Assembly: GCA_964513865.1 (NCBI GenBank)
Contig: CAZENX010000002.1
Location: forward strand, 1 to 40,959
Source of the DNA: an uncultured Methanosarcinales archaeon
GTDB taxonomy: Archaea; Nanobdellota; Nanobdellia; Woesearchaeales; PXDW01
Direction of reading: 5' to 3'
DNA length: 40,959 nucleotides
Below the pieces are notes generated by a model. It had not been told where the DNA came from. It saw only the letters and a program-made list of their open reading frames with translations, and searched no databases. This document shows positions 2,785 through 40,959 of this stretch, piece after piece (within the stretch, counting starts at the first letter, position 1; each line of letters starts with the position of its first letter). The position numbers were made by a program, and so were the translations under genes.

Positions 2785-3438
2785 TTGTTTTTCATCATTT
2801 TCTTTAGAGGCAAATTGATAAAAATAATTCCAAAAAATAAAAAATCATTCTCTGAACTTCTTGGAATAATGTTCGGAGATGGATGTCTTTCTAGATCAGG
2901 GGATAAACACTCAATTTATATAAGTGGGAATAAAGACGAATCTTCTTATATCAATTACATTAATTCTCTATTCAAGTCTATTTTTAATAAAGAGACAAAT
3001 GTGGGCTTTAGAAAAGATGAAAACACTTTGTTTATAAGATTTAGTGATAAAAATGTCTTTGATATATTTAAAAAATACTTGCCTATAGGAAAGAAATATG
3101 GAAAATTAGAAATACCTAACTTTATTCTTGATAATGAATACTATTTCTTTCAGTTTCTAAGAGGACTTTTTGATACAGATGGTTGTTTAGTTTTATCTAA
3201 ACAACACAAAAATAATCCATACTATCCAAGAATTGAAATAACAAGTAAATCAAAAAGATTTCTAAAGCAAATTCTATTATATCTAAAAAATGTTGGTTTT
3301 TATGGTTCAATCTCATCAAAAGGAGGAAAAAGTTATAGATTAGAACTGCCGGGGTTTGAGAATTTTAGTTTGTGGAGATTATTAATCAATTCAAAAAATC
3401 CAAAAAATTTGAAAAAATTTATATTGGTTAAAAAGTAG
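2785..3438 (+). CDS. Free-standing double-motif LAGLIDADG homing endonuclease
   Basis: Two LAGLIDADG-type motifs at the expected spacing: LLGIMFGDGCL and FLRGLFDTDGCL, about 100 aa apart. TTG start in the track; the exact start is uncertain. No flanking Hint/intein blocks. Confidence 0.8.
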   Translation: MFFIIFFRGKLIKIIPKNKKSFSELLGIMFGDGCLSRSGDKHSIYISGNKDESSYINYINSLFKSIFNKETNVGFRKDENTLFIRFSDKNVFDIFKKYLPIGKKYGKLEIPNFILDNEYYFFQFLRGLFDTDGCLVLSKQHKNNPYYPRIEITSKSKRFLKQILLYLKNVGFYGSISSKGGKSYRLELPGFENFSLWRLLINSKNPKNLKKFILVKK

Positions 3439-3444
3439 AAATCT

Positions 3445-3452
3445 TTATAAAT
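3445..3452 (+). promoter_or_regulatory. Candidate archaeal TATA box upstream of the tRNA pair
   Basis: TTTATAAA lies about 35-40 nt upstream of tRNA position 1 (3486), which allows a short 5' leader. Confidence 0.35.
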
Positions 3453-3515
3453 TACCTAAAATCACACAACTATAGTCAGAAATATGCCTCGGTAGCTTAG
3501 TAGGTTGAGCGTGCG

Positions 3516-3536
3516 AATTCTGACAAGAATCACGAA
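3516..3536 (+). other. tRNA-Asn intron 1 (non-canonical position 30/31) with a strict bulge-helix-bulge motif
   Basis: H helix CGTG(3510-3513)/CACG(3531-3534). The 3-nt bulges are CGA(3514-3516) and AAG(3535-3537). Inner helix ATTCT/AGAAT closed by a GACA loop. Cutting after the 2nd bulge nucleotide joins TGCG to G, restoring a perfect anticodon stem. Confidence 0.7.
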
Positions 3537-3543
3537 GCTGTTA

Positions 3544-3557
3544 ACCTATTAGCAGTC
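3544..3557 (+). other. tRNA-Asn intron 2 (canonical 37/38), 14 nt
   Basis: H helix CTGT(32-35)/GCAG(3552-3555), including one G-U pair. The 5' bulge is TA|A and the 3' bulge TC|A, adjacent to stem strand CCGCA. There is no inner helix (7-nt loop), so the motif is relaxed. Confidence 0.65.
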
Positions 3558-3644
3558 ACCGCAAGGTCGGCAGTTCGAGTCTGCCCCGAGGCGCTTTTTC
3601 ATTAAGGGCCTGTAGCATAGTCTGGCTGGTGCGCACGACTGATA

Positions 3645-3656
3645 GCTTTGTCTGAA
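3645..3656 (+). other. tRNA-Ile intron 1 (canonical 37/38), 12 nt
   Basis: H helix CTGA(3639-3642)/TCTG(3651-3654) with one U-U mismatch. Bulges TA|G and AA|A. Very short, relaxed BHB. Confidence 0.55.
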
Positions 3657-3678
3657 ATCGTGAGGTCCGGAGTTCAAA

Positions 3679-3709
3679 AGCTAAAAGGTTCAAACCTTTG
3701 GTTTGAAAG
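3679..3709 (+). other. tRNA-Ile intron 2 (T-loop, position 59/60), 31 nt
   Basis: The T stem CGGAG/CTCCG acts as the outer helix. H helix TTCA(3673-3676)/TGAA(3704-3707) is perfect. Bulges are AAA(3677-3679) and AGT(3708-3710). Cutting after the 2nd bulge nucleotide gives T-loop TTCAAAT. The intron holds an internal hairpin AAAGG-TTCAAA-CCTTT (3684-3699). Confidence 0.65.
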
Positions 3710-3750
3710 TCTCCGCAGGCCCATTCCATCACTGGACATCCTTACCCAAA

Positions 3751-3759
3751 TTATATAAA
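3751..3759 (+). promoter_or_regulatory. Candidate TATA box for a leaderless helicase-fragment mRNA
   Basis: TTATATAAA is centred about 27 nt upstream of ATG 3782. Confidence 0.4.
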
Positions 3760-3781
3760 TGTAATAAACTTCTTTTTTTGT

Positions 3782-5338
3782 ATGAAGGAAAAAATAAATA
3801 CAGAATATTCTGATGCTACGATAAACCTTGCATTAAACACTCTTGAAAAAAATAAACAAGCTTTAGTCTTTGTAAATACAAGAAGATCAGCTGAATCTAC
3901 TGCAGAAAAGATTTCTTTGAAAATAAAGTCCACTAATAAAAAGCTAATGGAATTAGCAGATAAAGTACTTCGTATTCTGCAAAATCCAACAAAGCAATGC
4001 AAAAGATTAGCTTTATGTATAAAAAAAGGTATTGCTTTTCATCATTCTGGCTTAACCCATAAGCAAAGAGAGCTTATAGAGGATAATTTTAGGAATGGTC
4101 TTATTAAAATAATCTGCTGTACTCCTACATTAGCATATGGTGTTGACCTTCCAGCATTCAGAACAATAATCAGGGATTTATACAGATATGGAGGAATACA
4201 TGGAACAGAAAATATTCCTGTTTTAGAATATCTGCAGATTTCTGGCAGGGCAGGAAGACCAAAATATGATTCTTTTGGTGAATCTATTGCTGTTTCAAAG
4301 TCTAAATCAAACAAAGAAAAAATAGTTGAGACATATGTAAAAGGAGAGCCAGAGGAAATCATTTCAAAACTAGCAGTTGAACCAGTTTTAAGAACATATA
4401 TTTTAAGTCTTATAGCAGGTGAATTTGTAAAAACAAAAAAAGAGCTTTTGGAATTTTTTGAAAAAACCTTCTATGCAATGCAATATGAAGATATAGAAGG
4501 TATTGAAAGAATCTTAACAAAAATTATTCATCTACTGGAAGAATGGGAATTTTTAAAATCAACAAAAGATGATTTTATATCTGCTAAAGAGATTAATGAG
4601 GACAAGCTGGAAGCAACTAAGCTAGGGAAGAGAGTTTCAGAGCTTTACATAGACCCGTTAACAGCTTTTAATATACTAACCTGCTTAAGAAAGGCTTCTT
4701 CAAAGATAATAAGAGAATTCTCTTTTTTACATGTAATATCCTCAACTCTGGAAATGAGGCCTTTATTAAAAACAAGAATGAAAGAATTTGATGAAATGCA
4801 GGAGAAAATAGCAGAATTTCAGGATTATTTGTTAATAAATGAGCCCAACATATATGAACCAGAGTATGAAGAATTTGTTGATACAATAAAAACAGCAATG
4901 ATATTCCAGGAATGGATAGATGAAAAGGACGAAGAGTTTTTATTGGAGAAGTATAATGTAAGGCCAGGAGAGCTAAGAGCAAAACTAACTATAGCTGATT
5001 GGCTGCTTTATGCAACAGAAGAACTAGCTAGGTTGCTTCAATTCCAGAATTTAATCAAGAAGATAAGAAAAACAAGGTTCAGATTAAAGTATGGTATTAA
5101 AGAAGAGCTTATGCCTCTTGTCAAGTTAAAAAACATCGGAAGAGTAAGAGCACGTACTTTATTTATAAACAAGATAAGAGATATTGGAGATGTAAAGAAA
5201 GCAGATTTAATAAAATTAGCACAATTATTAGGAAAAAACATAGCAATAGATGTGAAGAAACAGGTTGGACAGGATTTTTCTAAATTAAAGGTCAAGGAAA
5301 GAAAAAGAAAAGGCCAGATAAGTATAAAAGATTTTTAA
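3782..5338 (+). CDS. Hel308/Ski2-like DNA/RNA helicase, C-terminal fragment only (RecA2, winged helix, ratchet and HhH-like domains); RecA1 half absent
   Basis: The ORF begins at motif IV (ALVFVNTRRSAE). It then has AFHHSGL, motif V CCTPTLAYGVDLPA and motif VI QISGRAGRPKYD, followed by a long helical C-terminal region. Walker A, DEVH and SAT motifs are missing. Upstream sequence is tRNA genes plus its own TATA box. Confidence 0.8.
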   Translation: MKEKINTEYSDATINLALNTLEKNKQALVFVNTRRSAESTAEKISLKIKSTNKKLMELADKVLRILQNPTKQCKRLALCIKKGIAFHHSGLTHKQRELIEDNFRNGLIKIICCTPTLAYGVDLPAFRTIIRDLYRYGGIHGTENIPVLEYLQISGRAGRPKYDSFGESIAVSKSKSNKEKIVETYVKGEPEEIISKLAVEPVLRTYILSLIAGEFVKTKKELLEFFEKTFYAMQYEDIEGIERILTKIIHLLEEWEFLKSTKDDFISAKEINEDKLEATKLGKRVSELYIDPLTAFNILTCLRKASSKIIREFSFLHVISSTLEMRPLLKTRMKEFDEMQEKIAEFQDYLLINEPNIYEPEYEEFVDTIKTAMIFQEWIDEKDEEFLLEKYNVRPGELRAKLTIADWLLYATEELARLLQFQNLIKKIRKTRFRLKYGIKEELMPLVKLKNIGRVRARTLFINKIRDIGDVKKADLIKLAQLLGKNIAIDVKKQVGQDFSKLKVKERKRKGQISIKDF

Positions 5339-6345
5339 TCAAGCAATTCACTAACAGATTCCCTGTTATGGATTCTTGATATAACCTCTGCAAACAATTG
5401 GGCAACTGAAACCTCTTCATACCATGGATTTTTTTTGAAAAAATCTTTGTCTCTATAGATAGCATCAGTCCCAATTACTTTCTTTATTGTTCCTTTTTTG
5501 TATAATTCAGAGAACTCTTTTATAGCATCTCCATTAAAGAAACCAAAGGTAGTTGCAACATAGATGTCTTTTACACCTTCCTTTGCTATCTCATTTACAA
5601 TCTTTATTATTGTGCCGCCAGAATCTATCATGTCATCTACTAATAAGATATTTTTACCTTTGATATCCCCTATTCTTATATAACTTTCAATATCTCCTTT
5701 TAGGCTTCTTTCTTTATAATAAATAACTACATTCGCATTAAGTTTTTTTGCGTAATATTTTGCACGAGCGGTTCCGCCAATATCAGGAGAAACTACTGCA
5801 AGATTTTTTAAAATATCACTATGTTTTTCTTTGAGCTTATCAATAATAATCTTTGAAGCATGTAAATTCTGGGCTTTGGCTTTCCTGAAGAAACCTTCAA
5901 TAACACTTGAATGAAGGTCTATTGTTATAACCCTCTTTGCTCCAAGATTCTCTAGTTCCATGGCTGCAATCTGGGCAGTAATTGCCTCTCTCTCCTGTTT
6001 TCTCTCCTGTCTTGAATAAGGGTAATAAGGAATAATTACATTTATTTCCTCAGCATCAGAGTAATAGGCTGCCTGTATCAATGTTTTTAAAATCAGGAAA
6101 TCATCATTTACGCTCCTTCCTGCATAAGGGTTTCCAATGCATTGTATTATATAAACATCATTGCCTCTTATATTCTCCTTAATTGTTGTTTTGAATTCTG
6201 TATTCCTAAACTTGACTTCTTCAGTTTTTTTAATAAAATGCTTTACTTTCTTTTCTGCCAGATATTTAGAAATCCTTTCTGTAAAATATTTTCCTGATTC
6301 ACAGCTTAATAATGCTAAATTAAAATTGTTGTTACTTATTTTCAT
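5335..6345 (-). CDS. prs: Ribose-phosphate pyrophosphokinase (PRPP synthase) family protein
   Basis: Motifs YYPYSRQERK, SPDIGGTARAKYYAKKL and the PRPP-binding loop LLVDDMIDSGGT. Confidence 0.8.
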   Translation of the reverse strand: MKISNNNFNLALLSCESGKYFTERISKYLAEKKVKHFIKKTEEVKFRNTEFKTTIKENIRGNDVYIIQCIGNPYAGRSVNDDFLILKTLIQAAYYSDAEEINVIIPYYPYSRQERKQEREAITAQIAAMELENLGAKRVITIDLHSSVIEGFFRKAKAQNLHASKIIIDKLKEKHSDILKNLAVVSPDIGGTARAKYYAKKLNANVVIYYKERSLKGDIESYIRIGDIKGKNILLVDDMIDSGGTIIKIVNEIAKEGVKDIYVATTFGFFNGDAIKEFSELYKKGTIKKVIGTDAIYRDKDFFKKNPWYEEVSVAQLFAEVISRIHNRESVSELLD

Positions 6346-6413
6346 CCCCCCTTTTAAGGTGTATAAATTAAATCTTTATAAATCTTATTGAAATAGAAAA
6401 ATAAAAAGGATTT

Positions 6414-7490
6414 CTAGTTCTCATAAAATTCGTTTATTGAATCATCGTGGTTTATGGTATAAATGATTTTTGCAATAAGTTCTGCTACAGAAACAATTGT
6501 TAACCATGATTTATTCTCTTCAAGATATTCTTTGGAATGCTCAATAGTATCTGTGCTTATTAGTTCATCAAGATATTTATTATTATGTAAATCCCTGAAT
6601 CTTTCTGCTGTTGTTTTTTTCTTTTTAGGATCATCACTTAAAATTGGATGAGCAACAGCTGCTGATATTCTTCTTGCATTTTTCTCTTTAGTACTTACTA
6701 TGGCTTTCTCAAGGGTTCCACCAGTATCCACCATATCATCAACAATTATACAATCTTTTCCTTCAATATCTCCTGAGAATTTTATTACTTCTGTTTTGTT
6801 CGGAATACTATAAGAACGGGTTTTACTTGCAATAGCTGCTTCAACATGGAGTTTATCAGCAAAATATTCAGCTCTTTTGCCTCCTCCAGCATCAGGAGAT
6901 ACAATTACTAAATTATTAAGATCATACTTTTCTCTTATATATCCAAGTAAAATAGGGGTAGCATGAGGAGCTTCTGCTCTTGTATCCTTTGTTTGATAAA
7001 GTTCTCTTATATGTCTGTCGTGCATATCCAAAGCAATTAAATTATTAATATATAGCTTAAGAAACTCTGCAAGCATTCTTGAACTGCAGCATTCCCTTCC
7101 CTGTCTTACGTCTTGTCTACAATAAGCAAAATAAGGTGAAACAAGAATCAGGTCTTTTTTTCTAGGTAACGAGTCTCTTGCTGCGTCCAATGTATGAAAC
7201 ATTTCAATTAAATTCTCATTCACACTTCTCCCAAGAGCCTTATTCTGTGGCATGTCAACAACATAGGTTTCAAATTTTCTTATACTTTCAGGTATCCCAA
7301 CTTTTGTTTCACCATCAGCAAAATCAGTAACTTCTGTATCAATCAATTTGATTATTTGTTCAGAATCAGGCTCTCTTTCTTTTTTTATTTTCAAAAGCGC
7401 TTTATAAAGTTTTTTACCAAAATTTCTGCCTGCTCTAGTGGTAAGAAGTGCTATATCCTCAACAATATATCTATTATGATAATGAACCAA
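6414..7490 (-). CDS. Ribose-phosphate pyrophosphokinase family paralog (divergent)
   Basis: Motifs SPYFAYCRQDVRQ, SPDAGGGKRAEYFADKL and IIVDDMVDTGGT. TTG start preceded by GGGGGT (SD-like) 7 nt upstream. Sits in tandem with the previous prs gene. Confidence 0.7.
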   Translation of the reverse strand: MVHYHNRYIVEDIALLTTRAGRNFGKKLYKALLKIKKEREPDSEQIIKLIDTEVTDFADGETKVGIPESIRKFETYVVDMPQNKALGRSVNENLIEMFHTLDAARDSLPRKKDLILVSPYFAYCRQDVRQGRECCSSRMLAEFLKLYINNLIALDMHDRHIRELYQTKDTRAEAPHATPILLGYIREKYDLNNLVIVSPDAGGGKRAEYFADKLHVEAAIASKTRSYSIPNKTEVIKFSGDIEGKDCIIVDDMVDTGGTLEKAIVSTKEKNARRISAAVAHPILSDDPKKKKTTAERFRDLHNNKYLDELISTDTIEHSKEYLEENKSWLTIVSVAELIAKIIYTINHDDSINEFYEN

Positions 7491-9729: not shown

Positions 9730-9975
9730 ATGGAAATAAAAAATTTTATCTCTAAAAATACTTTGAAAATCTTAGTCAAACCTAATTCTAATAAGACGGA
9801 AATAATTAATATTGACAAAAATAATAAAATAATAAAGGTAAATGTCAAAGCTCCTGCTGATAAAAACAAAGCCAATATAGAAATAATAAAATTCTTTTCA
9901 AAATTATTAAAGAGAAAGGTAATAATCAAGAAAGGGCTTAAATCAAGAGAAAAACTGCTTGAGATTAAAGCTTAA
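9730..9975 (+). CDS. DUF167 (YggU-like) family protein
   Basis: LKILVKPNSNKTEI...VNVKAPADKNKANIEIIKFFSKLL...KKGLKSREKLLEI matches the DUF167 pattern from memory. Confidence 0.6.
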   Translation: MEIKNFISKNTLKILVKPNSNKTEIINIDKNNKIIKVNVKAPADKNKANIEIIKFFSKLLKRKVIIKKGLKSREKLLEIKA

Positions 9976-10966
9976 CTTTCCTTACCTTAATCTTGGCTTC
10001 TTTTATTATTGCTTTTGACAAAGGGTCTTCATAATCCTCATGGTAAACTATCTCTTTAATGCCAGCATTTATTAAAATTTTTATACAGGTAAAGCAGGGG
10101 AAATTTGTGCAATATATTGTAGCATTTTCAACACTAATACCAGAAGAAGCTGCTTGTGCAATTGCATTTTGCTCAGCATGAACTGCTCTTGTTATTTCCT
10201 TGCTTTGCATTGGAGGTATACCCAATTGGTCTCTTAGGCAACCTCCTCTCTCATTGCAGTGTTTCAAGCCACGAGGAGGACCATTATAGCCAGTTGTCAG
10301 AATCTTCTTGTCCTTTACAATAACAGCTCCTACATTTCTACTTAAACAAGTAGATCTTTCTCTAACTAAATAAGCTAACTTCATAAAATACTCATCCCAT
10401 GAAGGCCTTTTTATTCCGATTTCTATCTTCAGGTCTTTTATTATCCTGTTTGTCTTTTTCTTTAACTCTTCTATTGTTGAGTCATTTTTTAGAATAATAT
10501 CTGCCATCTCCTTGCATTTATTTATCTGTAATTCATAAGAAGTTTTGCTTGAGTGCTTTGCATTAAGCTTTTTTATATCCTCATCTTTTTTAGGGTCTTT
10601 TTCTCTTTCTCTGTTTTTGATTCTACTCTGTCTTATTTCCAAAGGTGCATCAACAAATATGAGGGTAAAATCACCTCTTTTTTTTAAAACATTAACCTCT
10701 CCAGGGTTTGCTATGGAACTTATAACATAGTTTTTACCAGGTATAACTTTCTGCAAAACCCTTTCTGCCAATATGCCGGAACCATATCTTTTTCTCAATT
10801 GGTTTCCCAGCTTAATTAAATTGTTTCTTGTTACTTCCTTTCCTTTTTGTTCAAGCTCTTCTCTTAAGATATCTGACAGAGAATAATGAAAGAAGTTTTT
10901 TCTTACAAAGCTGTAAGCTACAGTGTTCTTTCCAGAGCCAGGGTACCCAGATAAGCCAATTATCAT
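9965..10966 (-). CDS. Fusion protein: N-terminal P-loop nucleotide/nucleoside kinase-like domain (UPF0200/dephospho-CoA-kinase-like) and C-terminal dCMP deaminase
   Basis: Walker A is IIGLSGYPGSGKNT, right after Met at 10966. The C-terminal half has VHAEQNAI (zinc/catalytic Glu) and PCFTCIKILINAGI (CxxC). The track's extra 30 N-terminal residues look non-coding. Confidence 0.75.
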   Translation of the reverse strand: MIIGLSGYPGSGKNTVAYSFVRKNFFHYSLSDILREELEQKGKEVTRNNLIKLGNQLRKRYGSGILAERVLQKVIPGKNYVISSIANPGEVNVLKKRGDFTLIFVDAPLEIRQSRIKNREREKDPKKDEDIKKLNAKHSSKTSYELQINKCKEMADIILKNDSTIEELKKKTNRIIKDLKIEIGIKRPSWDEYFMKLAYLVRERSTCLSRNVGAVIVKDKKILTTGYNGPPRGLKHCNERGGCLRDQLGIPPMQSKEITRAVHAEQNAIAQAASSGISVENATIYCTNFPCFTCIKILINAGIKEIVYHEDYEDPLSKAIIKEAKIKVRKVKL

Positions 10967-11377
10967 TTGAAAAAGAAATACCCTGAGATTAAAAAAGGTT
11001 ATTATGATTAAAAGATTATTTTTAATTATATATTTATTAATTACATCCCGCAGCATAGGTCGTGGAAAATAAGCTCTTCTCCTATATCAGAATAAATATT
11101 AGAGCTAAATAAACCATATACTTGTGCATATTTTATGTTTTTTTTCAATCTACTATTCTTCATCTTCTTTTTTGAGATATTTTTTAAGGCTTTTGTTTTT
11201 CTTTTTCTCTTCATAATCAACCATATTCATTTCTGTTTCCTCTTTTTGGTGCTTAGAAAATTACACTCCCAGATGTTAGATATAAAGGTTATATATAAAT
11301 TAAATTAATCTGAAAACTATATTTTATAACTTATTTATTTAATGTCAGTAGAATTTATAAATGTTGTGTCTGCACAG

Positions 11378-11884
11378 TTATTCTTTAATTGTTTTGTTGT
11401 TTTTATCCAGCGAAAAAAGATTTGTCAGATTATGCGAGATAATCTTCCCGTTTTCAGCACTAATCTTCATATTTAAGGTGCTGAACGCTTTGCTTATAAA
11501 AGTAAGGTTCCATAACTCTTCATTTAGATTCTGCAGAATTATAATCTTCTTCTCAGTTTTATGGGCGGGGTAATGCTCTTTCTGGAATCTTTCAGCTATA
11601 TTTAATGCCTTTTCATAAGGAATTTTTACTTTTTTTAAATCAAGTTTTTTCACTATCCCGGATTTTTTAAAAACCTCTTCTTCAGGATTTTTTGTTATAT
11701 TCTCGTTTACACAAAAAGTTACAATCTTATCTTTCTTCTTGCTATAGTACCCAATCTGCCATTCCTGCTTTATGGAAGGGTCTATCATCAGGAATGCATG
11801 CACAAGATAGTACTCTCTATTCTCTTTTCTCCATTCCTTAAATACACCAGAGTCCTCTATTTTTTTAATTAACTGTGAAATCAT
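11378..11884 (-). CDS. Hypothetical protein (168 aa)
   Basis: Long ORF with ordinary composition, and the antisense frames are closed. No motif recognised. Confidence 0.5.
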   Translation of the reverse strand: MISQLIKKIEDSGVFKEWRKENREYYLVHAFLMIDPSIKQEWQIGYYSKKKDKIVTFCVNENITKNPEEEVFKKSGIVKKLDLKKVKIPYEKALNIAERFQKEHYPAHKTEKKIIILQNLNEELWNLTFISKAFSTLNMKISAENGKIISHNLTNLFSLDKNNKTIKE

Positions 11885-11992
11885 ATAAAGATTTTAGTTA
11901 TAGTGATATAAAAAATTATTGGTTAATTATATCTTTTTATACATAAAAATATTTAAATCTATCAATTTTTAGATATTTAACCGGGGTGGATT

Positions 11993-13555
11993 ATGGGGTA
12001 TTCAGATGATGATAAAAAAGTACTTAATTATTTCTTTACTAACATAGACAAGGCTGTTTTTGCAACTAAAAACTTTCATCCAGAGGTATGGGCTTTAATG
12101 CAAGCTCGCTATAGCAGATCAAGAGAAGGACTTAGGCAAAGTTTCTTAAAGCTTTTAAAAGAGGACCCTGAAAATTTTCGAAAATTAAAGGAAGAAATAG
12201 AGAAGACAAAAGGAGGCATGCAGGCAAGGCACGCGACAGAAAAAGCGATTGAATTTATGGAGAAATGGGTTCTCGGCTATGGTCATAGCTCTATAGCTGA
12301 GGGAGCTGTAATAGGTTTGGGTTTAGAAGGAGTAAGCATATTAGTTACAAAGATTATTGAAGATAATAGATTATGCTCTTTTATTGAGAAATCAACAAGG
12401 TATGTTTCTTTTGATAGTAGCTCTTTTTATATTGATCCAAATTTAGAAAAATCAGAACATTATAGGGAAATAAAAGAGCTTTTGGATTTATTGTTCCAGA
12501 CATATAAAGAGTTGCATGAGCCAGTTTTAGAATATATAAAGAAGGTAGCTCCGCTTGAAAAAGACATGGCAGAGGCTGCATGGGAAAGGGCATGCGCTGC
12601 AAGAAGATTTGATGCTATCAGGTATCTTCTTCCTACTTGCACCAAAACAAGTTTTGGATGGACAGTAAATGCCAGACAACTGGCGCATGCTATTTCAAAG
12701 CTATTGTCTCATCCTTTAAAAGAGGCGAATCAAGTAGGGGAACAGATTAAGGAAGAAGCATCAAAAGTGCTGCCTTCTTTGTTGAGGTATGCTGACAAGA
12801 AGGATTATTTTGTAAAGACAAGGAAAGAGATGAGAGACATATCTAAAGAAATTGAGATAGAAGATGAAAATACCAACAGAGTTTCTTTAGTAAAAGGACC
12901 AGAAGATGCAGATGATATTGTTATAGCAGCAATCTTATACAGATTCAAGAAGCAGCCCTTTGAGAAGATAATGGAGAAAGTAAAATCAATGTCTCAGGAG
13001 GAAAAAGAAAAGATATTTGATGGTTATCTGAAAAATATGGGAGATTATGATTACCCAATGAGAGAGCTAGAGCATGCTCAATTCATTTTTGACATTATTA
13101 TAGATTATGGCGCATTCAGGGATTTGCAGAGGCACAGAATCTGCACCCAGACAAACCAGATATTAACCTCTGAATTAGGATATGATGTTTCTAAAGATAT
13201 TGTTGAAGCAGGTTGCGAAGAAAAATACAAAAAAGCCATGGATAAGGCAAAGGAGATTCATGAAAAGATTGTGGATAAATACCCTTTGCAGGCTCAATAC
13301 ATCTTACCATTGGGTTTTAGAAAAAGATACCTTATGACAATGAATTTAAGAGAGATATATCATCTTGTCAAGTTGAGAACAACTCCTCTTGCTCATGATT
13401 CTTATAGAAAGATTGCTTACAAAATATATGATGTTTTCAAGAAAAGATACCCTTTATTAGCGAAGTATATTGTCTGCAATTACTCAAAAGAAGAGCTTGG
13501 AAGATTAAAGGCTGAGGAAAAAACCGAGAAACTAGAAAAGGTAGGTCCGTTATAA
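11993..13555 (+). CDS. thyX: FAD-dependent thymidylate synthase ThyX, long tandem (pseudo-dimeric) form
   Basis: The N-half has DNRLCSFIEKSTRY (residues 124-137), which equals RHRx2Sx4SxRY apart from the first two residues. The C-half has FRDLQRHRICTQTNQ (RHR at 380-382). At 520 aa it is about twice the size of a single-domain ThyX. Confidence 0.75.
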   Translation: MGYSDDDKKVLNYFFTNIDKAVFATKNFHPEVWALMQARYSRSREGLRQSFLKLLKEDPENFRKLKEEIEKTKGGMQARHATEKAIEFMEKWVLGYGHSSIAEGAVIGLGLEGVSILVTKIIEDNRLCSFIEKSTRYVSFDSSSFYIDPNLEKSEHYREIKELLDLLFQTYKELHEPVLEYIKKVAPLEKDMAEAAWERACAARRFDAIRYLLPTCTKTSFGWTVNARQLAHAISKLLSHPLKEANQVGEQIKEEASKVLPSLLRYADKKDYFVKTRKEMRDISKEIEIEDENTNRVSLVKGPEDADDIVIAAILYRFKKQPFEKIMEKVKSMSQEEKEKIFDGYLKNMGDYDYPMRELEHAQFIFDIIIDYGAFRDLQRHRICTQTNQILTSELGYDVSKDIVEAGCEEKYKKAMDKAKEIHEKIVDKYPLQAQYILPLGFRKRYLMTMNLREIYHLVKLRTTPLAHDSYRKIAYKIYDVFKKRYPLLAKYIVCNYSKEELGRLKAEEKTEKLEKVGPL

Positions 13556-13556
13556 A

Positions 13557-14801
13557 ATGGAAGAGCTAAAATCAGATCCTGAAGTAAAAAAGATAATTCA
13601 AAATGAACTAGAGAGACAGAGGAATGAATTAAATATGATTCCATCTGAGAATTATTGCAGCAAAGCAGTTTTAGCTGCTTCTGGTTCTGTTTTGGTAAAT
13701 AAGTATTCAGAAGGCTATCCAAAGAAGAGATACTATCAGGGAAACAGGTTTATAGATGATATTGAGCAGCTTGCAATAGACAGAGCAAAGAAGCTTTTCA
13801 AAGCAGAGCATGCCAATGTTCAGCCAAATTCAGGTTCTCCCGCAAATATGGCTGTATATTTTGCTTTATTGGAAAGAGGAGATAAAGTGTTGGGAATGAA
13901 TCTAAGCCATGGCGGGCATTTGACTCATGGTTCTCCTGTAAATTTTTCAGGGAAGTATTATAATTTTGTTGCTTATGGTGTCGAGAAAGAAACAGAAGTT
14001 TTGGATATGGATAAAATCAGAAAATTAGCAGAGAAAGAAAAACCAAAGATGATTTTAAGTGGATATACAGCTTACCCAAGAACTATAGATTTCAAGGCAT
14101 TTCATGATATTGCTGCTTCTGTTAATGCTTATTCATTTGCAGATATTTCCCATATCGCAGGCTTGATTGTAGGAGATGCTCATCCCTCTCCATTGCCATT
14201 TACAGATGTTATTATGACTACAACACATAAAACTCTAAGAGGACCTCGTTCAGCAATCATTTTATGCAAGGAAAAGTTTGCTCAGCAAATTGATAGGGCT
14301 GTATTTCCCGGTTTGCAAGGGGGACCTCATGAGCATACAATAGCAGCAAAAGCAGTTACTTTTCAGGAAGCAATGAAACCAGAGTTTAGGGCATATACAA
14401 AGCAGATTGTAAAGAATGCAAAAGCTTTGGCTGAAAAGCTTATGTCAGAAAATATTAAACTGGTTTCAAATGGAACAGATACCCATCTTTTATTAATAGA
14501 TTTGATAAATACAAAGGCAATTGGAAAACCGGGAATGGGAAAAGAGATAGCAGTTGCTTTGGAGGAGGCAGGCATTGTTGTAAATGCAAATACGATTCCT
14601 TTTGACCCTTCCACTCCTTTTAACCCTTCTGGTATAAGGTTAGGCACTCCAATATTAACAACAAGAGGAATGAAAGAGCAGGAGATGGAATTAATAGGAA
14701 AATACATGGCAGATATTATCAAAAATTATAAGGATGAAGCCTTAAAGAAAAAAATAAAAGGAAAAGTCTTAGAGCTTTGCAATAATTTTATTTTCTACTA
14801 A
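13557..14801 (+). CDS. glyA: Serine hydroxymethyltransferase
   Basis: Motifs NKYSEGYPKKRYYQG and the PLP-lysine box TTTHKTLRGPR, plus VFPGLQGGPHEH. Confidence 0.9.
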   Translation: MEELKSDPEVKKIIQNELERQRNELNMIPSENYCSKAVLAASGSVLVNKYSEGYPKKRYYQGNRFIDDIEQLAIDRAKKLFKAEHANVQPNSGSPANMAVYFALLERGDKVLGMNLSHGGHLTHGSPVNFSGKYYNFVAYGVEKETEVLDMDKIRKLAEKEKPKMILSGYTAYPRTIDFKAFHDIAASVNAYSFADISHIAGLIVGDAHPSPLPFTDVIMTTTHKTLRGPRSAIILCKEKFAQQIDRAVFPGLQGGPHEHTIAAKAVTFQEAMKPEFRAYTKQIVKNAKALAEKLMSENIKLVSNGTDTHLLLIDLINTKAIGKPGMGKEIAVALEEAGIVVNANTIPFDPSTPFNPSGIRLGTPILTTRGMKEQEMELIGKYMADIIKNYKDEALKKKIKGKVLELCNNFIFY

Positions 14802-14802
14802 G

Positions 14803-16140
14803 ATGAAAATCATAAAAGCCGGATATGATAAATATCTTAACAAAGATATTAAAAAGATTATTTTTGACAAGATTCCCGACAAAAAAATCTTTTCCTCAGG
14901 AGATGTTATATTCGGAAATCCTGTTTCTAATATTGCTATTGCTTTTATTTATACATGGAAATCAGACAAAGCTCCCGAGAAGATACATGATTTGTTTGTG
15001 AAATTATCAAATTATGCCGCTGTAACAGGTTATTGGAGAACAACTAATGGAGGAAAGTATGTGTTTGCCAATATACTCTCAAATCCCAACATAAACAAAT
15101 TAGTTGTCCTGGTTTTTGAAAAGGAAGATAATGGGCATCTGTTGGTTGATGCTTTAAGGAATCTATGGGTAAAAGGTGTTGATAAAGAAGGCATTATTGT
15201 AGATAGCAAATGTCCTAATCCAAAATTTGAAGGGATTCCAAATGAAGCCCTTAATAGAGTAAGAAAACAGGCTGATCTAGTTATTTTGAAAAGGATAAAA
15301 GATTTTTCATTAGCTGAAGATTTAATAAAAGCACAGATTCAGGAGCCGGAGAATGCTTTTCATGTTGATAATTTCAAGAATTTGGAATTTTATTCAAATT
15401 TTTCTGATAAAAAATTGATGTATGATGATGGAATCAGGTTTGATAAACCTTTTATTATTGATTTTTCATCAATTGCAGAAAAGGTTAAATTTGATAAAAA
15501 AAAGTTCCAGTTATCCCAATCTATTGAGGTAGAAGATTTAGATGAAGCAGTCAGGCAGGTAGCAGCTTTTATTTATGGGCATGGTGATTTAACAGAGGAT
15601 CAGAGGGGCATAAAAACCTTTGAGTACCGCTCTTTTTCTCTAACTGTTAGGGATGCTTTATCCAAAATGCCGGAGCATTTTTCTGCTGAATATTTAAAAA
15701 AATATGTAAAAGAGTTTATGGAAGGTGTAGGGGAAAAGTTAGATGATTTTGTTTATACCTATCATGATAGAATCTTCAAAAAATGGGGGGATCAGTTTGA
15801 GAAAGCTGTTAATATTTTGAAGAAAGACCCAAATACAAGAAGAGCTTTAATTTCATTATGGGATTCTGAAAAAGATATTTTATCGGTTAATCCGCCTTGT
15901 TTAGATTTTATATGGCCCTGCATTAGAAATAATAAGCTTGAGTTTCATGTTGTTTACAGAAGCCACCATCTTGCAACAGTTGATAAAGATGGTAAATTGA
16001 TAAAAGGAGAAGGAGCATTAGTCCCTAATCTTTATGCGATTGCCATAATGCAGCAAAAGATGGCAAAAGAATTAAATATGGAAAGGGGTTACCTCTATCT
16101 GACAGATTTTAGTGGGCATTTATATATGACGGAAAAATGA
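14803..16140 (+). CDS. Fusion protein: N-terminal MtrA-like (corrinoid-binding Rossmann-type) domain and C-terminal thymidylate synthase (ThyA) fold domain
   Basis: The C-terminal part aligns by eye to E. coli ThyA: DQFEKAVNILKKDPNTRRALISLWD, NPPCLDF (Cys366 at the nucleophile position), KLEFHVVYRSHH (Arg386), LVPNLYAIAI (Asn409) and GHLY. The N-terminal part (about residues 30-180) resembles MtrA as I remember it: GNPVSNIAIAF, ANILSNPNINKLVVLV, EDNGH (His112 at the position of the Co-ligating His), GVDKEGIIV. Confidence 0.65.
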   Translation: MKIIKAGYDKYLNKDIKKIIFDKIPDKKIFSSGDVIFGNPVSNIAIAFIYTWKSDKAPEKIHDLFVKLSNYAAVTGYWRTTNGGKYVFANILSNPNINKLVVLVFEKEDNGHLLVDALRNLWVKGVDKEGIIVDSKCPNPKFEGIPNEALNRVRKQADLVILKRIKDFSLAEDLIKAQIQEPENAFHVDNFKNLEFYSNFSDKKLMYDDGIRFDKPFIIDFSSIAEKVKFDKKKFQLSQSIEVEDLDEAVRQVAAFIYGHGDLTEDQRGIKTFEYRSFSLTVRDALSKMPEHFSAEYLKKYVKEFMEGVGEKLDDFVYTYHDRIFKKWGDQFEKAVNILKKDPNTRRALISLWDSEKDILSVNPPCLDFIWPCIRNNKLEFHVVYRSHHLATVDKDGKLIKGEGALVPNLYAIAIMQQKMAKELNMERGYLYLTDFSGHLYMTEK

Positions 16141-16841
16141 AAGGGAAATTTGTAATGATTGATGGGCTTGACGGTTCTGGTAAAGGGGTAGCAGTTGATG
16201 CTCTTAAAGAATCTACATTATCAAAAGGGAAGAAGGTTATTGATTTAAGGGAATTCTGGAAAAAGCAAGAAGGGTTTCCTGATATTTCAGATTATGATGT
16301 TATTATATCTGCAGAACCTACTTTTACAAATATAGGTAAGAATATAAGGGAAAGATTAATCAGGAAAGGGACAACCCATTCTGCAAAAGAGATTGCTGAA
16401 GCTTATTCTAATGATAGACTAGAACTTTATCAAAAAATTATTTTGCCAGCTTTAGAGCAAGGAAAAATAATTATACAGGAAAGAGGAGTAGTAACTTCCT
16501 TGGTTTATCAACCATTAATGAAAAATGGTTATATATTAGAGAAGATAAAAAATCTTGAAGGTAATAAATTTTGTATGGAGCATGCACCTGATTTACTAGT
16601 AATAATTGTTGTAAAGCCAGAGGTTGTTATAGAAAGATTAAAAGAAAGAGGAAAAAAAGATAATGCGATATTTGAAAAATTAGAGTTTCAAAAAAGGATA
16701 GAGAAGATATATGAAAGCGAGTGGCTTAAGCAGGAATTTGAAGCAAGAGGCTCAAAAGTTGTTTACCTTGACACAAATCCTCCTAAAACAGTTGAAGATA
16801 CAAAGAAAAAAATAATAGAGTTATTTGAAGAATTAATTTAA
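16137..16841 (+). CDS. tmk: Thymidylate (dTMP) kinase family protein
   Basis: P-loop FVMIDGLDGSGKG, NDRLELY (DR motif) and ERGVVTSLVYQ. The start overlaps the upstream stop (ATGA). Confidence 0.75.
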   Translation: MKGKFVMIDGLDGSGKGVAVDALKESTLSKGKKVIDLREFWKKQEGFPDISDYDVIISAEPTFTNIGKNIRERLIRKGTTHSAKEIAEAYSNDRLELYQKIILPALEQGKIIIQERGVVTSLVYQPLMKNGYILEKIKNLEGNKFCMEHAPDLLVIIVVKPEVVIERLKERGKKDNAIFEKLEFQKRIEKIYESEWLKQEFEARGSKVVYLDTNPPKTVEDTKKKIIELFEELI

Positions 16842-17261
16842 TCCAGTACTTCCAAAGCCGCCTTCTCCTCTTTTTGTTTTATCTAACTCAGGAACTTCTT
16901 CTATTTCTGCTGTCTCTATCTTGTTTATTATCATTTGAGCTATCTTCATACCTTTTTCTATTTTAAAATCTTCATTACTATGGTTTATCATAATGACTCC
17001 TATTATGCCTCTGTAGCCAGCATCAATTGTTCCCGGAGTGTTTAAAACAGTGATACCATGATTTGATGCTAAACCAGATTTTGGCCTTACTTGGGCCTCA
17101 TAACCCTCAGGAACCGCAATTTTTATACCACTGGATACAATTTTTCTTTCCCCTACTTTTAGAACAACATCTTCAGCAGAATATAGGTCCATTCCTGCAT
17201 CACCGGGATGAGCATATTTCGGCAAAGGAACATCCGCAATCTTCTGAATTTTTATTTTCAT
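16833..17261 (-). CDS. dut: dUTP diphosphatase (trimeric dUTPase)
   Basis: Motifs AGMDLYS, RPKSGL, GTIDAGYRG and C-terminal RGEGGFGSTG. The likely start is MKIKIQK at 17261 rather than the track start at 17321. The 3' end overlaps tmk by 9 nt, convergently. Confidence 0.85.
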   Translation of the reverse strand: MKIKIQKIADVPLPKYAHPGDAGMDLYSAEDVVLKVGERKIVSSGIKIAVPEGYEAQVRPKSGLASNHGITVLNTPGTIDAGYRGIIGVIMINHSNEDFKIEKGMKIAQMIINKIETAEIEEVPELDKTKRGEGGFGSTGLN

Positions 17262-17461
17262 TTCAATTTTCCTCGAAAATTGTAATGTGCTTAGAAAAGC
17301 TTTGCTTTTCTTGCATACCAAAAATGCTTTTGCATTTTTTAGTGTCCCAGAAATCTCTGATTTTTAAGGACATTCATTAAAAGAAAAAGTACTCATATTT
17401 AAATAATATTGCTTTGGAGAATATAATTAGATTTAAATATAATTAAATTTTTTATTTAAAA

Positions 17462-35523: not shown

Positions 35524-36834
35524 TTATTTTTTCTTTTGTATTCTTTCCTGAATCTTTTTCAGATTCTCTTCAGCTTTTTTCATGTCTTCCTCTGTCACTT
35601 CTTGTTTGGATTCAACTTTCTCTTCTTTAATATCTTCTAATTTTTCTTCTACCTTCTTTTCCTCTGCTTCTTTCTCTTCGGTTTTTTCAGGTTCTTCTGT
35701 AATCTCTTCTTTTGCCTCTTCACTTTCTTTAGTTTCCTTTTTTGGTTGTTCCTGTTCTTCTGTTTCTTCTTCCTTCTCTTTTTTTTGTTCTATTTTAGTT
35801 TCTTTCTCTTTTTCCTCCTTTGTTTCTTTTTTTGTAGTTTCTTCTTTCTTTTCAGGTTCTTTTATTTCTTCAACTTTTTCTTCTTCAATTTTTTCCTCTT
35901 TTGTTTCTTTAGGTTTCTCTTCTGTTTTGCTAGTTGCTTCTTTCACCTCTTCTTGTTTTTCTTTGACTTCTTCCATTTTCTTTTCCTCTTGTTTTTCAGG
36001 AATATTAAGTTTATTAGCTAAATCTTTCATTTGTGCCTCAGCTTTTGAAATCAGATTCTTTGTGGTTAAATCAGTAATTAAATCTTTGCTTATTGCTAAA
36101 TTTTTAGAATCATTAAATGCCTTTGATAATAAAAACTGAATATTGTCTTTGGTTATATATCCTGCCTCTAAAGCTAAATTAAAAACAGCTCTTGCAGCAT
36201 TTTGAATGTCTGCCAGATACTTTGATTCATCTATTGCCAAAACATCTTTTTTGAAGATATCTCCATTTTCATATACAGCTATTATATTTAAACCAATCTC
36301 CATTGGTTCTATACCTAATCTTGTCAAAACCTTTGCTTTATCCTCTGTTATAACTTCCCCTTCTTTTGCCACCAAAGAATCCTCTTTTATAGCCACTTTC
36401 CCGTTTTCTATACCAGCTTTAATTCCTGCCTGTCCTAACTCTCCTATAATTGGTCCAGGTGCAAATCCTGTCGGACCTGCTGGAACTACGATATCCTTAG
36501 GAGCTTTCTGTCCTGGTTTTGCAGCTGCCTTGGATTTGCTTTTTTCCAAAAGCTTATATAATTTGAAAGGGTTCTCTTTTGAGAATATCAAAGCAGGCAT
36601 TCCTTCTAAATAAGGTTCAATCTCTTTTATCTTCTCTTTTGAGGATTTTTCTATTGCTAATTTTAATAACCTTCTCTTTGTCATTTTTATGACTATTGTA
36701 TCCCTTAAAGAAGACACCATCTGCTGTAATTGTTTTGCTGGCAGATTTTCCATATTTACAGCTGCTATAATCGGATAAGTATCTATTAATTTACTAAAAT
36801 CTTCTACAGTTTTTTTCTTTTGTTCTGATGTCAT
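35524..36834 (-). CDS. rplP0: Ribosomal stalk protein P0 (uL10) with a long K/E-rich C-terminal extension
   Basis: The uL10 core has YPIIAAVNMENLPAKQLQQM, GMPALIF, PAGPTGFAPGPIIGELGQAGI and GIEPMEIGL. The last 150 aa or so are EEKK/ETKE low complexity ending KKIQERIQKKK. Confidence 0.85.
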   Translation of the reverse strand: MTSEQKKKTVEDFSKLIDTYPIIAAVNMENLPAKQLQQMVSSLRDTIVIKMTKRRLLKLAIEKSSKEKIKEIEPYLEGMPALIFSKENPFKLYKLLEKSKSKAAAKPGQKAPKDIVVPAGPTGFAPGPIIGELGQAGIKAGIENGKVAIKEDSLVAKEGEVITEDKAKVLTRLGIEPMEIGLNIIAVYENGDIFKKDVLAIDESKYLADIQNAARAVFNLALEAGYITKDNIQFLLSKAFNDSKNLAISKDLITDLTTKNLISKAEAQMKDLANKLNIPEKQEEKKMEEVKEKQEEVKEATSKTEEKPKETKEEKIEEEKVEEIKEPEKKEETTKKETKEEKEKETKIEQKKEKEEETEEQEQPKKETKESEEAKEEITEEPEKTEEKEAEEKKVEEKLEDIKEEKVESKQEVTEEDMKKAEENLKKIQERIQKKK

Positions 36835-39408: not shown

Positions 39409-40095
39409 ATGGAAAATATACCTGAACATCTGGGGATAATTGTTGATGGCAATAGGAGGTTTGCTAAACGCTTAAATCAGGATCCAAAAAAAGGTCATGA
39501 ATATGGAGCAAAGAAATTAGGGGATGTATTAAAATGGTGCAAGGAACTCGGTATTAAAAAGCTTACCTTGTTTATTTTTTCCCTTGAAAATTTTCATAGA
39601 CCAAAGGAAGAATTTGATTATCTGATGAATATTTTCAGAAAGGAATTTGATAAGCTAAAGGATGATAAAAGATTACAGGACCTTAACATTAAGGTAAGAG
39701 TCATAGGAAGAATTGAGCTTTTCCCAAAGGATATACAGGAAAAGATAAAAGAGGTTATGGAGAAAACAAAAGATAATGACAAATATGAGCTAAACTTTGC
39801 TTTTGGTTATAGTGGAAGAGCAGAGATAGTGGATGCAACAAAAAAGATAATACAGGGAAAACTGAGACCAGAGGATATAGACGAGAAAAGCTTTGCAGAA
39901 TATCTTTACCTAAATGATGATGTTGATTTAATCATAAGAACTTCAGGAGAAAAAAGAACCTCTGGTTTCCTGCTATGGCAGGGCTCTTACGCAGAGTATG
40001 TTTTTGTAAATAAGTTATGGCCAGAGTTTGAAAAAGAGGATTTTGTAAAAGCCATTAAAGATTATTCTGGAAGGGAAAGAAGGTTTGGGGGGTAA
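39409..40095 (+). CDS. uppS: Cis-prenyltransferase (undecaprenyl/dolichyl diphosphate synthase family)
   Basis: HLGIIVDGNRRFA, FSLENFHRP, IRTSGEKRTSGFLLWQ and ERRFGG. Confidence 0.9.
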   Translation: MENIPEHLGIIVDGNRRFAKRLNQDPKKGHEYGAKKLGDVLKWCKELGIKKLTLFIFSLENFHRPKEEFDYLMNIFRKEFDKLKDDKRLQDLNIKVRVIGRIELFPKDIQEKIKEVMEKTKDNDKYELNFAFGYSGRAEIVDATKKIIQGKLRPEDIDEKSFAEYLYLNDDVDLIIRTSGEKRTSGFLLWQGSYAEYVFVNKLWPEFEKEDFVKAIKDYSGRERRFGG

Positions 40096-40917: not shown

Positions 40918-40959
40918 TTCTTTCGAGTATAAAATCAATTAATTCTTTTAATTTACTAA

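Follow-up and report, generated by a model that had tools for sequence, protein, structure and literature searches.

An MtrA-like::ThyA-like fusion protein in a conserved deoxypyrimidine gene cluster of Woesearchaeota-like archaea and its possible link to cobamide-dependent thymidylate synthesis

The stretch of DNA analysed here (the window) is composed of 40,959 nucleotides of contig CAZENX010000002.1, deposited for an uncultured Methanosarcinales archaeon, and contains a cluster of genes for deoxypyrimidine metabolism. One of these genes encodes a protein of 445 amino acids (aa) in which a domain resembling MtrA, the cobamide-carrying subunit of the methyl-tetrahydromethanopterin (H4MPT):coenzyme M methyltransferase, is fused to a domain resembling the thymidylate synthase ThyA. 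The same operon encodes the unrelated thymidylate synthase ThyX, a serine hydroxymethyltransferase (GlyA) and a deoxynucleoside monophosphate (dNMP) kinase of the Tmk family. Judging from the sequence, these genes form a conserved module for deoxypyrimidines that belongs to a Woesearchaeota-like archaeon of the DPANN group. A deoxycytidine monophosphate (dCMP) deaminase and the dUTPase Dut would supply deoxyuridine monophosphate (dUMP), a synthase would convert it to thymidylate (dTMP), Tmk would produce dTDP and GlyA would load one-carbon units onto folate. The conventional folate-dependent synthase of the module appears to be the tandem ThyX in the window, and ThyA together with dihydrofolate reductase (DHFR) in its relatives. 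Our preferred reading, put forward tentatively, is that the fusion is a second, corrinoid-linked dTMP-forming enzyme that operates alongside the folate-dependent enzyme in an organism that scavenges cofactors.

The two domains of the fusion protein

The N-terminal domain matches PF04208 with 57.4 bits (cut-off 25) and can be aligned with PDB 5laa, an MtrA homologue in complex with cobalamin, at E = 2.7e-14; its score for TIGR01111 is 53.5, against a cut-off of 249. An AlphaFold2 (AF2) model of this domain alone has a predicted local distance difference test score (pLDDT) of 92.5 and a predicted template modelling score (pTM) of 0.89. When it was compared with the PDB by Foldseek, MtrA structures alone were found at E < 1e-3, 5laa with a template modelling score (TM) of 0.74-0.77. 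The model of the full-length fusion (pLDDT 88.5, pTM 0.82) suggests that the two domains have a defined arrangement. In MtrA, His84 ligates cobalt at the lower axial position and is hydrogen-bonded by Glu54, Asn55 binds a propionamide, and Asp17, Lys52, Thr53, Gly57 and Asn64 hold the nucleotide tail (PMC4915002). The residue of the fusion that aligns with His84 is His112, which is invariant in the 24 aligned sequences and in 120/120 members of the family. The positions of Thr53 (T80), Asn55 (N82), Asn64 (N90), Asp17 (D34) and Gly57 (G83/G84) are also invariant or nearly so in the family. The domain therefore has the fold and the ligand residues of cobamide-carrying MtrA, and is predicted to bind a cobamide itself. 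Compared with MtrA (PDB 5LAA, 5L8X), it shares the Rossmann-like fold, 32% identity, the cobalt-ligand His, the equivalents of Thr53, Asn55, Asn64 and Asp17, and the NPNI motif. Unlike MtrA, it runs on into ThyA with no transmembrane helix, has no mtr genes (mtrB-H) as neighbours in the 30 loci surveyed below, has Thr in place of Glu54, and is fused to a nucleotide-modifying domain.

The C-terminal domain exceeds the cut-off of PF00303 (27.2 bits against 24.3) but falls below those of TIGR03283, the methanogen type (101.5 against 174.55), and TIGR03284, the bacterial type (24.2 against 108.35). Foldseek assigned it to the thymidylate synthase fold at E ~1e-12, with PDB 9iqu as the best match (TM 0.70). 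In order to assess residue conservation, 24 family members that are approximately 50% identical to one another were aligned. From the alignments and the known residues of the E. coli enzyme, the following correspondence to E. coli ThyA was assigned: R268 (Arg21), E304 (Glu58), Y320 (Tyr94), R346 and R347 (Arg126 and Arg127), C366 (Cys146), R386 and S387 (Arg166 and Ser167), N409 (Asn177), and H439 and Y441 (His207 and Tyr209). This dUMP-site set is complete, and every residue in it is invariant in the 24 sequences.

The cofactor site is different. The equivalent of the folate-activating Asp169, which in ThyA binds the pterin and helps to open the ring of the folate cofactor, is His389, and His occupies this position in all 120 of the type III proteins defined below. 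The retention of Cys366, Arg386 and Asn409 and the replacement of the RSxD motif by RSHH, both reported in the earlier note on this DNA, were confirmed residue by residue (Arg386-Ser387-His388-His389), as were His439 and Tyr441. The insertion after RSHH, given there as 15 aa, is in fact 12 residues long, so that 19 residues separate His389 from Asn409, compared with 7 in all other ThyA types. PDB entry 1bjg says in its title that a D169N mutant "does not promote opening of the cofactor imidazolidine ring", and a 2026 study found D169N to be diagnostic of phage thymidylate synthase homologues that have switched from folate to flavin (PMC13326640).

Among the closest known enzymes are the small archaeal ThyA proteins (TIGR03283), which are stand-alone proteins of 200-230 aa found in methanogens and Asgard archaea. 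They share with the fusion the thymidylate synthase fold, the nucleophile Cys, the Arg quartet, the Ser, the Asn177 equivalent and the HxY motif. As in all of them, the C-terminus of the fusion lies four residues past HLY, and the Trp80/Trp83 segment and the bacterial C-terminal tail are missing. The fusion differs from them in its sub-cut-off score, in the His for Asp169, in the 12-aa insertion, in the MtrA-fold domain and in having a conventional synthase beside it.

Two other groups of enzymes offer partial parallels. The flavin-dependent 5-hydroxy-dCMP synthases of phages, AfhB (HY126, 9IQU/9IQC) and RB69 gp48, also combine a small thymidylate synthase fold with a substitution at the Asp169 position and have abandoned folate. 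However, these viral enzymes carry D169N and N177D (the latter for a dCMP substrate), use flavin and O2, and have no fused domain, whereas the fusion has His, keeps the Asn, and is encoded by cellular organisms that have been described as fermentative (PMC8421398). The bifunctional DHFR-thymidylate synthases of protozoa and plants likewise place an alpha/beta domain that handles the cofactor N-terminal to the synthase, and Foldseek aligns the synthase halves. The N-terminal domain of the fusion, in contrast, is unrelated to DHFR (no PF00186 match), and in relatives of the window a separate DHFR gene lies beside ThyA.

Distribution, types and genomic context

A search of 5.8 billion proteins returned 138 matches, of which the best 120 are all about 445 aa long and contain both domains. 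The fusion architecture is thus present in at least 120 protein clusters of Woesearchaeota and Nanoarchaeota, and its closest relatives come from metagenome-assembled genomes of these two groups. Their source labels read "thymidylate synthase", "thymidylate synthase (methanogen type)" or "MtrA". Since the architecture recurs in at least 120 clusters and the neighbourhood in 30 loci, the arrangement is not due to chance.

When 1.8 billion representative sequences were searched with a profile, 2609 matches were obtained. Using Pfam scans, two further searches and an hmmalign table of 445 sampled proteins, we sorted this larger, hitherto unrecognised superfamily into stand-alone proteins and at least three fusion types. 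Stand-alone small ThyA proteins (about 58, from Asgard archaea and others) have RS[N/H/Q]D, with the Asn at a spacing of 7. In type I (about 16 proteins), an MtrA-like domain with the His is joined to a ThyA domain that has Asp or Glu. Type II comprises about 160 proteins, from Aenigmatarchaeota, some Woesearchaeota and Chloroflexi, which consist of an MtrA-like domain, a small ThyA domain with Asp169 and the short loop, and a C-terminal PF14251 domain ('PterinBD-DUF4346'); these proteins are annotated as thymidylate synthase and are uncharacterised. Type III, to which the protein of the window belongs, comprises 120 proteins that always have the cobalt-ligand His, always have His for Asp169, carry the 12-aa insertion with GEGA, and have no C-terminal domain. 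The pattern is reciprocal: the cobalt-ligand His is found in all type III and the approximately 16 type I proteins, but in only 3 of the approximately 160 proteins bearing PF14251 (lost in ~157/160). In a rough neighbour-joining tree of the ThyA domains type III is monophyletic, which makes the change from Asp to His and the insertion the signature of one derived clade, alongside strict retention of the cobalt-ligand His.

No relative of the fusion family was found among IMG/VR viral contigs, and the fusion matched none of the PADLOC defence models; on these grounds a viral origin or DNA hypermodification context and a role in defence were respectively dropped.

Some irregular members of the family were also encountered. 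The fusion gene is split by frameshifts or truncated in L022:2150-3554, L027:10001-11146 and L028:2405-3671 (L numbers denote surveyed loci), either by assembly errors or as occasional pseudogenes. In L026:9983-10990 (JADGEQ010000023.1, labelled Desulfobacteraceae), an open reading frame (ORF) 60% identical to residues 7-229 of the N-terminal domain continues into unrelated sequence; the contig is otherwise bacterial-looking, and is either a chimeric assembly or the recipient of a transferred fragment. Proteins with the N-terminal domain only also exist (P0123, P0129, P0130, P0142 and P0144). Type III loci vary in G+C content between 0.23 and 0.55. Twelve loci (L003, L006, L007, L013, L015, L016, L019, L020, L024 and L027-L029) are titled 'uncultured Methanosarcinales archaeon', but as their gene content and synteny match those of Woesearchaeota loci, this label is probably mis-assigned.

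The genomic context was surveyed in 30 distinct type III loci with flanks of about 10 kb, in all of which the neighbourhood recurs, and the recurrence of partner genes was evaluated by clustering all ORFs of 28 loci and annotating the recurrent ones. The recurrent neighbours are a divergent P-loop kinase (with or without the dCMP deaminase), DUF167, Dut, the hypothetical protein hyp168, a deoxynucleoside kinase and Tmk-family kinases. Eleven loci have a conventional synthase in the cluster of the fusion. Nine of these have a ThyA of 288 aa with canonical RSCD and C-terminus (L001, L003, L004, L006, L010, L011, L012, L027 and L035), followed by DHFR in each case except L006, where no DHFR ORF was recovered; the other two, the window and L009 (221-1825), have ThyX. 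Gene order varies, with ThyA-DHFR-GlyA-FolC-fusion-Tmk in L003 and L004, fusion-ThyA-DHFR(-GlyA) in L001, L010 and L012, and ThyX-Tmk-fusion-Tmk in L009. Where the context is visible, the fusion is in no locus clearly the sole synthase. In four type I or type II loci, no other synthase was found within 8-10 kb; set against 11/30 for type III these are too few for statistics, and the contrast in synthase linkage is at most suggestive.

The most informative comparison is with L035, whose fusion is 74% identical to that of the window. Its flanks are syntenic with the window, with DUF460, NMD3, TFS and DUF167 on one side and Dut, a hyp168 homologue, TYW1 and a metallophosphoesterase on the other. 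The slot 5' of the fusion, filled by ThyX-GlyA in the window, is filled by ThyA-DHFR-GlyA in L035. One conventional synthase has been displaced in place by the other while the fusion has stayed unchanged, and this swap at one operon position between close relatives is a clean example of gene displacement. Mycobacterium (e.g. M. tuberculosis) and Corynebacterium carry both thyA and thyX and are exceptions to the mutual exclusivity of the two enzymes. Compared with such genomes, the two are here co-operonic, the ThyA-type member is divergent at its cofactor site and carries a corrinoid domain, and its partner is interchangeable.

Cobamide-linked methylation of dUMP and its alternatives

In the mechanism that we propose, the fusion would bind dUMP, Cys366 would add to C6, and C5 would be alkylated to give dTMP, which would be handed on to Tmk, whose translation is coupled. 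There would be no activation of 5,10-methylene-tetrahydrofolate (CH2-H4folate) of the classical kind, assisted by Asp169, and the one-carbon unit would be handled through a cobamide held His-on by His112. In the simplest scheme, the C5 enolate would attack methyl-Co(III) and leave Co(I), and a pterin or another methyl donor would re-methylate the cobalt. SAM (S-adenosylmethionine)-dependent C5-pyrimidine methyltransferases and polar methyl transfer from methylcobalamin to carbon are chemical analogues of the proposed step. That Asp169 is invariably replaced speaks against use of the classical cofactor chemistry. The dUMP site, together with the linkage to Tmk, suggests dUMP as the substrate of the fusion and a Tmk-type kinase as the recipient of its product; the simplest candidate for the product is dTMP. 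As the MtrA-fold domain is the sole cofactor module that the protein carries, and its cobalt ligand and tail pocket are conserved, a cobamide-linked methylation is tentatively favoured.

For an organism that has to scavenge both folate and cobamide, it would be useful to have two synthases that differ in their cofactor needs, by the same logic of alternative cofactors that is known from MetE/MetH and from the classes of ribonucleotide reductase. If the methyl source is 5-methyl-tetrahydrofolate, "trapped" methyl-folate would be released as tetrahydrofolate (H4folate), usable by GlyA and the conventional synthase. In Woesearchaeota complete cofactor pathways are rare, that for cobalamin included, and nucleotide and methylerythritol phosphate (MEP) pathway genes were acquired from bacteria (PMC8421398); a scavenging rationale therefore fits the lineage. 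The further step, that type III represents a third mechanistic class of thymidylate synthase in which cobamide carries a reduced methyl group to C5 of dUMP, with no dihydrofolate and no flavin, is more speculative, and we regard it as possible but doubtful.

Several observations count against cobamide-linked methylation. The position of MtrA Glu54, which hydrogen-bonds the cobalt ligand, is occupied by an invariant Thr (T81) in the fusion family. Type II proteins keep the MtrA-like domain though its His is lost, so that the domain must serve some purpose independent of cobalt ligation, and the type I proteins that carry both His and Asp indicate that the two features do not strictly exclude each other. 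Within 10 kb of the fusion in the 30 loci, no gene for a corrinoid transporter, a reductive activase, an MtrH/MetH-like methyltransferase or any other B12 function is recurrent, and none of these genes occurs anywhere in the 41-kb window, which leaves the methyl source unexplained. The operon partners of the fusion are all folate genes (GlyA in the window; FolC and DHFR in relatives). Finally, the His at the Asp169 position could hydrogen-bond a pterin.

The first alternative is that the fusion is an ordinary pterin-dependent archaeal thymidylate synthase using a methylene-pterin as carbon and hydride donor, with the MtrA-like domain as an appendage from a common fusion ancestor that serves in structure, oligomerisation or tail binding. 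Its co-occurrence with ThyX or ThyA-DHFR would then reflect redundancy after horizontal gain of bacterial genes, or specialisation for another pterin, such as a host-derived one of the methanopterin type. This would agree with the complete dUMP site, the setting in folate operons (GlyA, FolC, DHFR), the type II proteins that keep the N-terminal domain without its His, and the other MtrA::ThyA types, which look like the sole synthase of their neighbourhoods and are annotated as thymidylate synthase. Woesearchaeota are known to have gained nucleotide-metabolism genes from bacteria (PMC8421398). A reductase of the short-chain dehydrogenase/reductase (SDR) family (L035:9322-10002) or a nitroreductase-family flavoprotein (L037:2708-3421), each inserted directly beside the fusion in a single locus, could reduce dihydropterin. 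However, these two neighbours are not recurrent, and the idea of a dedicated reductase for the fusion was rejected for that reason. The equivalent of Asp169, needed for ring opening (1bjg title), is invariantly His in this subfamily alone; the cobalt-ligand His and the tail residues are invariant across 120 clusters, which is unexpected for a purely structural domain; and redundancy leaves a fixed fusion with an exchanged partner unexplained. We consider this alternative unlikely, although it deserves to be taken seriously.

The second alternative is that the fusion makes another C5-substituted deoxyuridylate, e.g. 5-hydroxymethyl-dUMP, which one of the neighbouring Tmk-like kinases would phosphorylate. 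In favour of this, a complete conventional synthase is encoded in the same operon, substitution of Asp169 marks a change of product as well as cofactor in the phage homologues, and AfhB, a dCMP hydroxylase of a phage (PDB 9iqu), is the closest structural match. Two different Tmk-family kinases follow the fusion in tandem in L016, L019, L020 and L021, and a weak DNPH1-like ORF follows it in L036. On the other hand, the fusion matches dUMP methylases at Asn409 and His439/Tyr441, it is not obvious what a corrinoid domain would do in hydroxymethylation, and family members are absent from the viral contigs searched. No glycosyltransferase, additional modification enzyme or dedicated polymerase is recurrent near the fusion. 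The kinases encoded after the fusion do not form a single specialised subfamily (canonical Tmk in L009 and L022), and it would be extraordinary for a cellular genome to have its thymine replaced or supplemented in bulk. This alternative is accordingly rather improbable.

These comparisons also bear on a proposal in the earlier note, that one of the two synthases does something other than plain dUMP methylation, through a different one-carbon carrier or by making a modified pyrimidine nucleotide as in phages. The idea that one of the two departs from plain CH2-H4folate chemistry has gained comparative support from the fixed fusion with its swapping partner, the monophyletic Asp-to-His change with the insertion, the cobalt-ligand His conserved in 120/120 and the D169N precedent. 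The modified pyrimidine found no specific support, given the conserved Asn409 and His/Tyr, the lack of recurrent modification genes near the fusion and of viral members, and a Tmk downstream nearly always.

Two further readings are very improbable. An inactive fusion, acting as a nucleotide-binding regulator or a scaffold for pyrimidine enzymes, would be compatible with the loss of the folate-activating Asp, with the frameshifted or truncated copies in L022, L027 and L028, and with a fusion that is never demonstrably the sole synthase; but the nucleophile Cys, the Glu58 and Tyr94 equivalents and the four phosphate-binding Arg are invariant in sequences about 50% identical, which points to selection for catalysis and not for binding alone. 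Equally remote is the idea that ThyX is the odd one out, a tandem, half-degenerate protein with another role, and the fusion the real thymidylate synthase. Each half of ThyX indeed lacks part of the motif set (RHR in half 1; Ser/Arg/Tyr in half 2), but the protein passes the TIGR02170 equivalog cut-off, the losses are complementary and composite sites would be kept, as ThyX sites span subunits, and the exact slot holds an unmistakable ThyA and DHFR in a syntenic relative, which argues that it encodes thymidylate synthase activity.

Thymidylate synthesis is among the most thoroughly studied reactions of DNA precursor metabolism, and two enzyme classes are known for it, ThyA and ThyX. The one-carbon donor of the small archaeal thymidylate synthases (TIGR03283) is not known to have been reconstituted. 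If the proposed cobamide mechanism is true, it would add a third route to thymidylate and a new kind of corrinoid-dependent C-methylation. The fusion proteins are already present in public databases, where they are machine-annotated as thymidylate synthase, and full-text literature searches found no paper on the MtrA::ThyA fusion, its three types, the His/Asp/PF14251 pattern or the pairing with an interchangeable ThyX or ThyA-DHFR. The annotation of hundreds of DPANN and Chloroflexi proteins as "thymidylate synthase" or "MtrA" is probably too specific, and metabolic reconstructions that read such fusions as plain ThyA or as evidence of Mtr may be misled. An ancestral reconstruction counts MtrA (arCOG03221) as support for a methanogenic archaeal ancestor (PMC13473441), and the occurrence of MtrA-fold::ThyA proteins in DPANN and even Chloroflexi could confound inference of this type from MtrA orthologues.

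Gene cluster, partner enzymes and the rest of the window

The features of the cluster are listed in Table 1. Profile searches of every ORF bore out all the ORF coordinates and identities of the earlier note, and its claim that the ThyX and ThyA-like folds are co-transcribed with glyA and a Tmk-family kinase gene is supported. The plus-strand genes are spaced, as it had stated, by 1 nt (TAA-a-ATG), 1 nt (TAA-g-ATG) and a 4-nt overlap (ATGA), and the 3' ends of tmk and dut overlap by 9 nt. The stretch upstream of thyX contains a TATA-like 'atatttaaat' and a Shine-Dalgarno-like GGGGTGG, from which we infer that it is the operon promoter. Going by the lengths of homologues, the true start of the kinase::deaminase gene is probably Met31 (10966); that of dut is probably Met21 (17261).

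Table 1. Coordinates of the features of the deoxypyrimidine cluster in the window
Feature	Position	Strand	Evidence
DUF167/YggU-family small protein	9730..9975	+	PF02594 63.6 bits
P-loop kinase (AAA_17)::dCMP deaminase fusion	9965..11056	-	PF00383 93 bits
Hypothetical protein hyp168, 168 aa	11378..11884	-	No significant family
AT-rich intergenic stretch 5' of thyX, putative operon promoter	11885..11992	+	Read from sequence
Tandem (two-half) ThyX, 520 aa	11993..13555	+	TIGR02170 99.7 vs cut-off 87.9; PF02511 in two stretches
GlyA, bacterial folate type	13557..14801	+	PRK00011 597 bits
MtrA-like::ThyA-like fusion, 445 aa	14803..16140	+	PF04208, PF00303 and TIGR03283 matches
MtrA-fold N-domain of fusion, residues 1-235	14803..15507	+	PF04208; PDB 5laa; AF2/Foldseek
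Codon of His112 (MtrA His84 equivalent), in DNGH motif	15136..15138	+	Alignment to 5laa
ThyA-like domain of fusion, small archaeal type, residues 240-445	15520..16140	+	PF00303, TIGR03283, Foldseek
Codon of nucleophile Cys366 (E. coli Cys146 equivalent)	15898..15900	+	Alignment; codon read
RSHH, 12-aa insertion and invariant GEGA of fusion	15958..16026	+	Alignments
Tmk-family dNMP kinase	16137..16841	+	TIGR00041 98.5 vs cut-off 83.25, partial coverage
dUTPase Dut, convergent with tmk	16833..17321	-	PRK00601 190.6 bits

In the tandem ThyX, the parts of the ThyX motif RHR(x7)S are divided between the halves: half 1 retains GHSS..E and S-T-R-Y, with DNR where RHR would be expected, and half 2 retains RHR but has no Ser/Arg/Tyr motif. 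The protein may thus be a pseudo-dimer in which the number of active sites is half that of other ThyX enzymes. Since the protein scores above the TIGR02170 cut-off and its slot is held by ThyA-DHFR in a relative, it is most likely a working folate/flavin synthase. The best PDB matches of GlyA are the serine hydroxymethyltransferases of S. aureus, Geobacillus and E. coli, with 450-490 bits.

A Tmk-family gene follows the fusion in most loci. These kinases belong to at least three subfamilies, some of them canonical at 152-166 bits (canonical Tmk in L009 and L022), and a dedicated kinase for a modified nucleotide was therefore rejected as a simple rule; the window-type Tmk passes the dTMP kinase model TIGR00041 marginally. 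The tandem kinases of L016, L019, L020 and L021 occur in the order deoxynucleoside kinase, fusion (at about 10001-11340 in L019-L021), 'FDFPQY'-type Tmk and window-type Tmk. In a single locus, a weak nucleoside 2-deoxyribosyltransferase/DNPH1-like ORF (L036:7187-7585) follows the fusion. This ORF and the SDR and nitroreductase neighbours could be helpers for pterin, corrinoid or nucleotide.

The kinase::deaminase has PDB matches to the dCMP deaminase 2hvv and to the kinase-like protein SSO1041 (3h0k), and its two parts are encoded by separate adjacent genes in L012, L016 and L023. It matches the PADLOC dCTPase model with 235 bits over both domains (model positions 155-502 of 630), and NF041025 with 180 against a cut-off of 400. 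It resembles a housekeeping relative of the dCTP deaminases used in defence, or possibly the protein from which these arose. The DUF167 gene adjoins the kinase gene in at least 10 related loci. Homologues of hyp168 (165-170 aa) lie beside dut in at least nine loci (L004, L009, L010, L016, L022, L023, L027, L029 and L035). Searches of hyp168 against Pfam and the PDB gave no informative match and no PDB relative, the weak PepSY-like PF03413 hit (18 bits) being under the cut-off.

The gene content of the window is archaeal and DPANN-like, with a G+C content of approximately 30%. It also encodes an archaeal CCA-adding enzyme, TFS, an Rpb7-like subunit, the ribosomal proteins L10/L12/L1, TYW1 and Nmd3; neither Rfam matches (riboswitches or other RNA elements) nor tRNAs were found in it. 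At 2785-5338 (+), a LAGLIDADG homing-endonuclease-like ORF (2785-3438) lies just 5' of a Hel308-type archaeal helicase ORF, whose Pfam matches start at Helicase_C, with no N-terminal DEAD/ResIII-type domain; an intein or mobile insertion may have split the helicase gene. IspH/LytB of the bacterial MEP pathway and a cis-prenyltransferase are encoded at 39409-40938 of this archaeal contig. The MEP pathway in Woesearchaeota appears to be specific to subgroup J and probably came from bacteria (PMC8421398), with which the IspH of the window agrees. The L10/P0 ORF at 35524-36834 (-) is 436 aa long and matches L10 domains over its first 175 aa only, and its region has an extreme strand composition, with AT skew down to -0.44 and GC skew of -0.34. 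Lastly, two paralogues resembling phosphoribosyl pyrophosphate (PRPP) synthetase are arranged in tandem at 5335-7490 (-).

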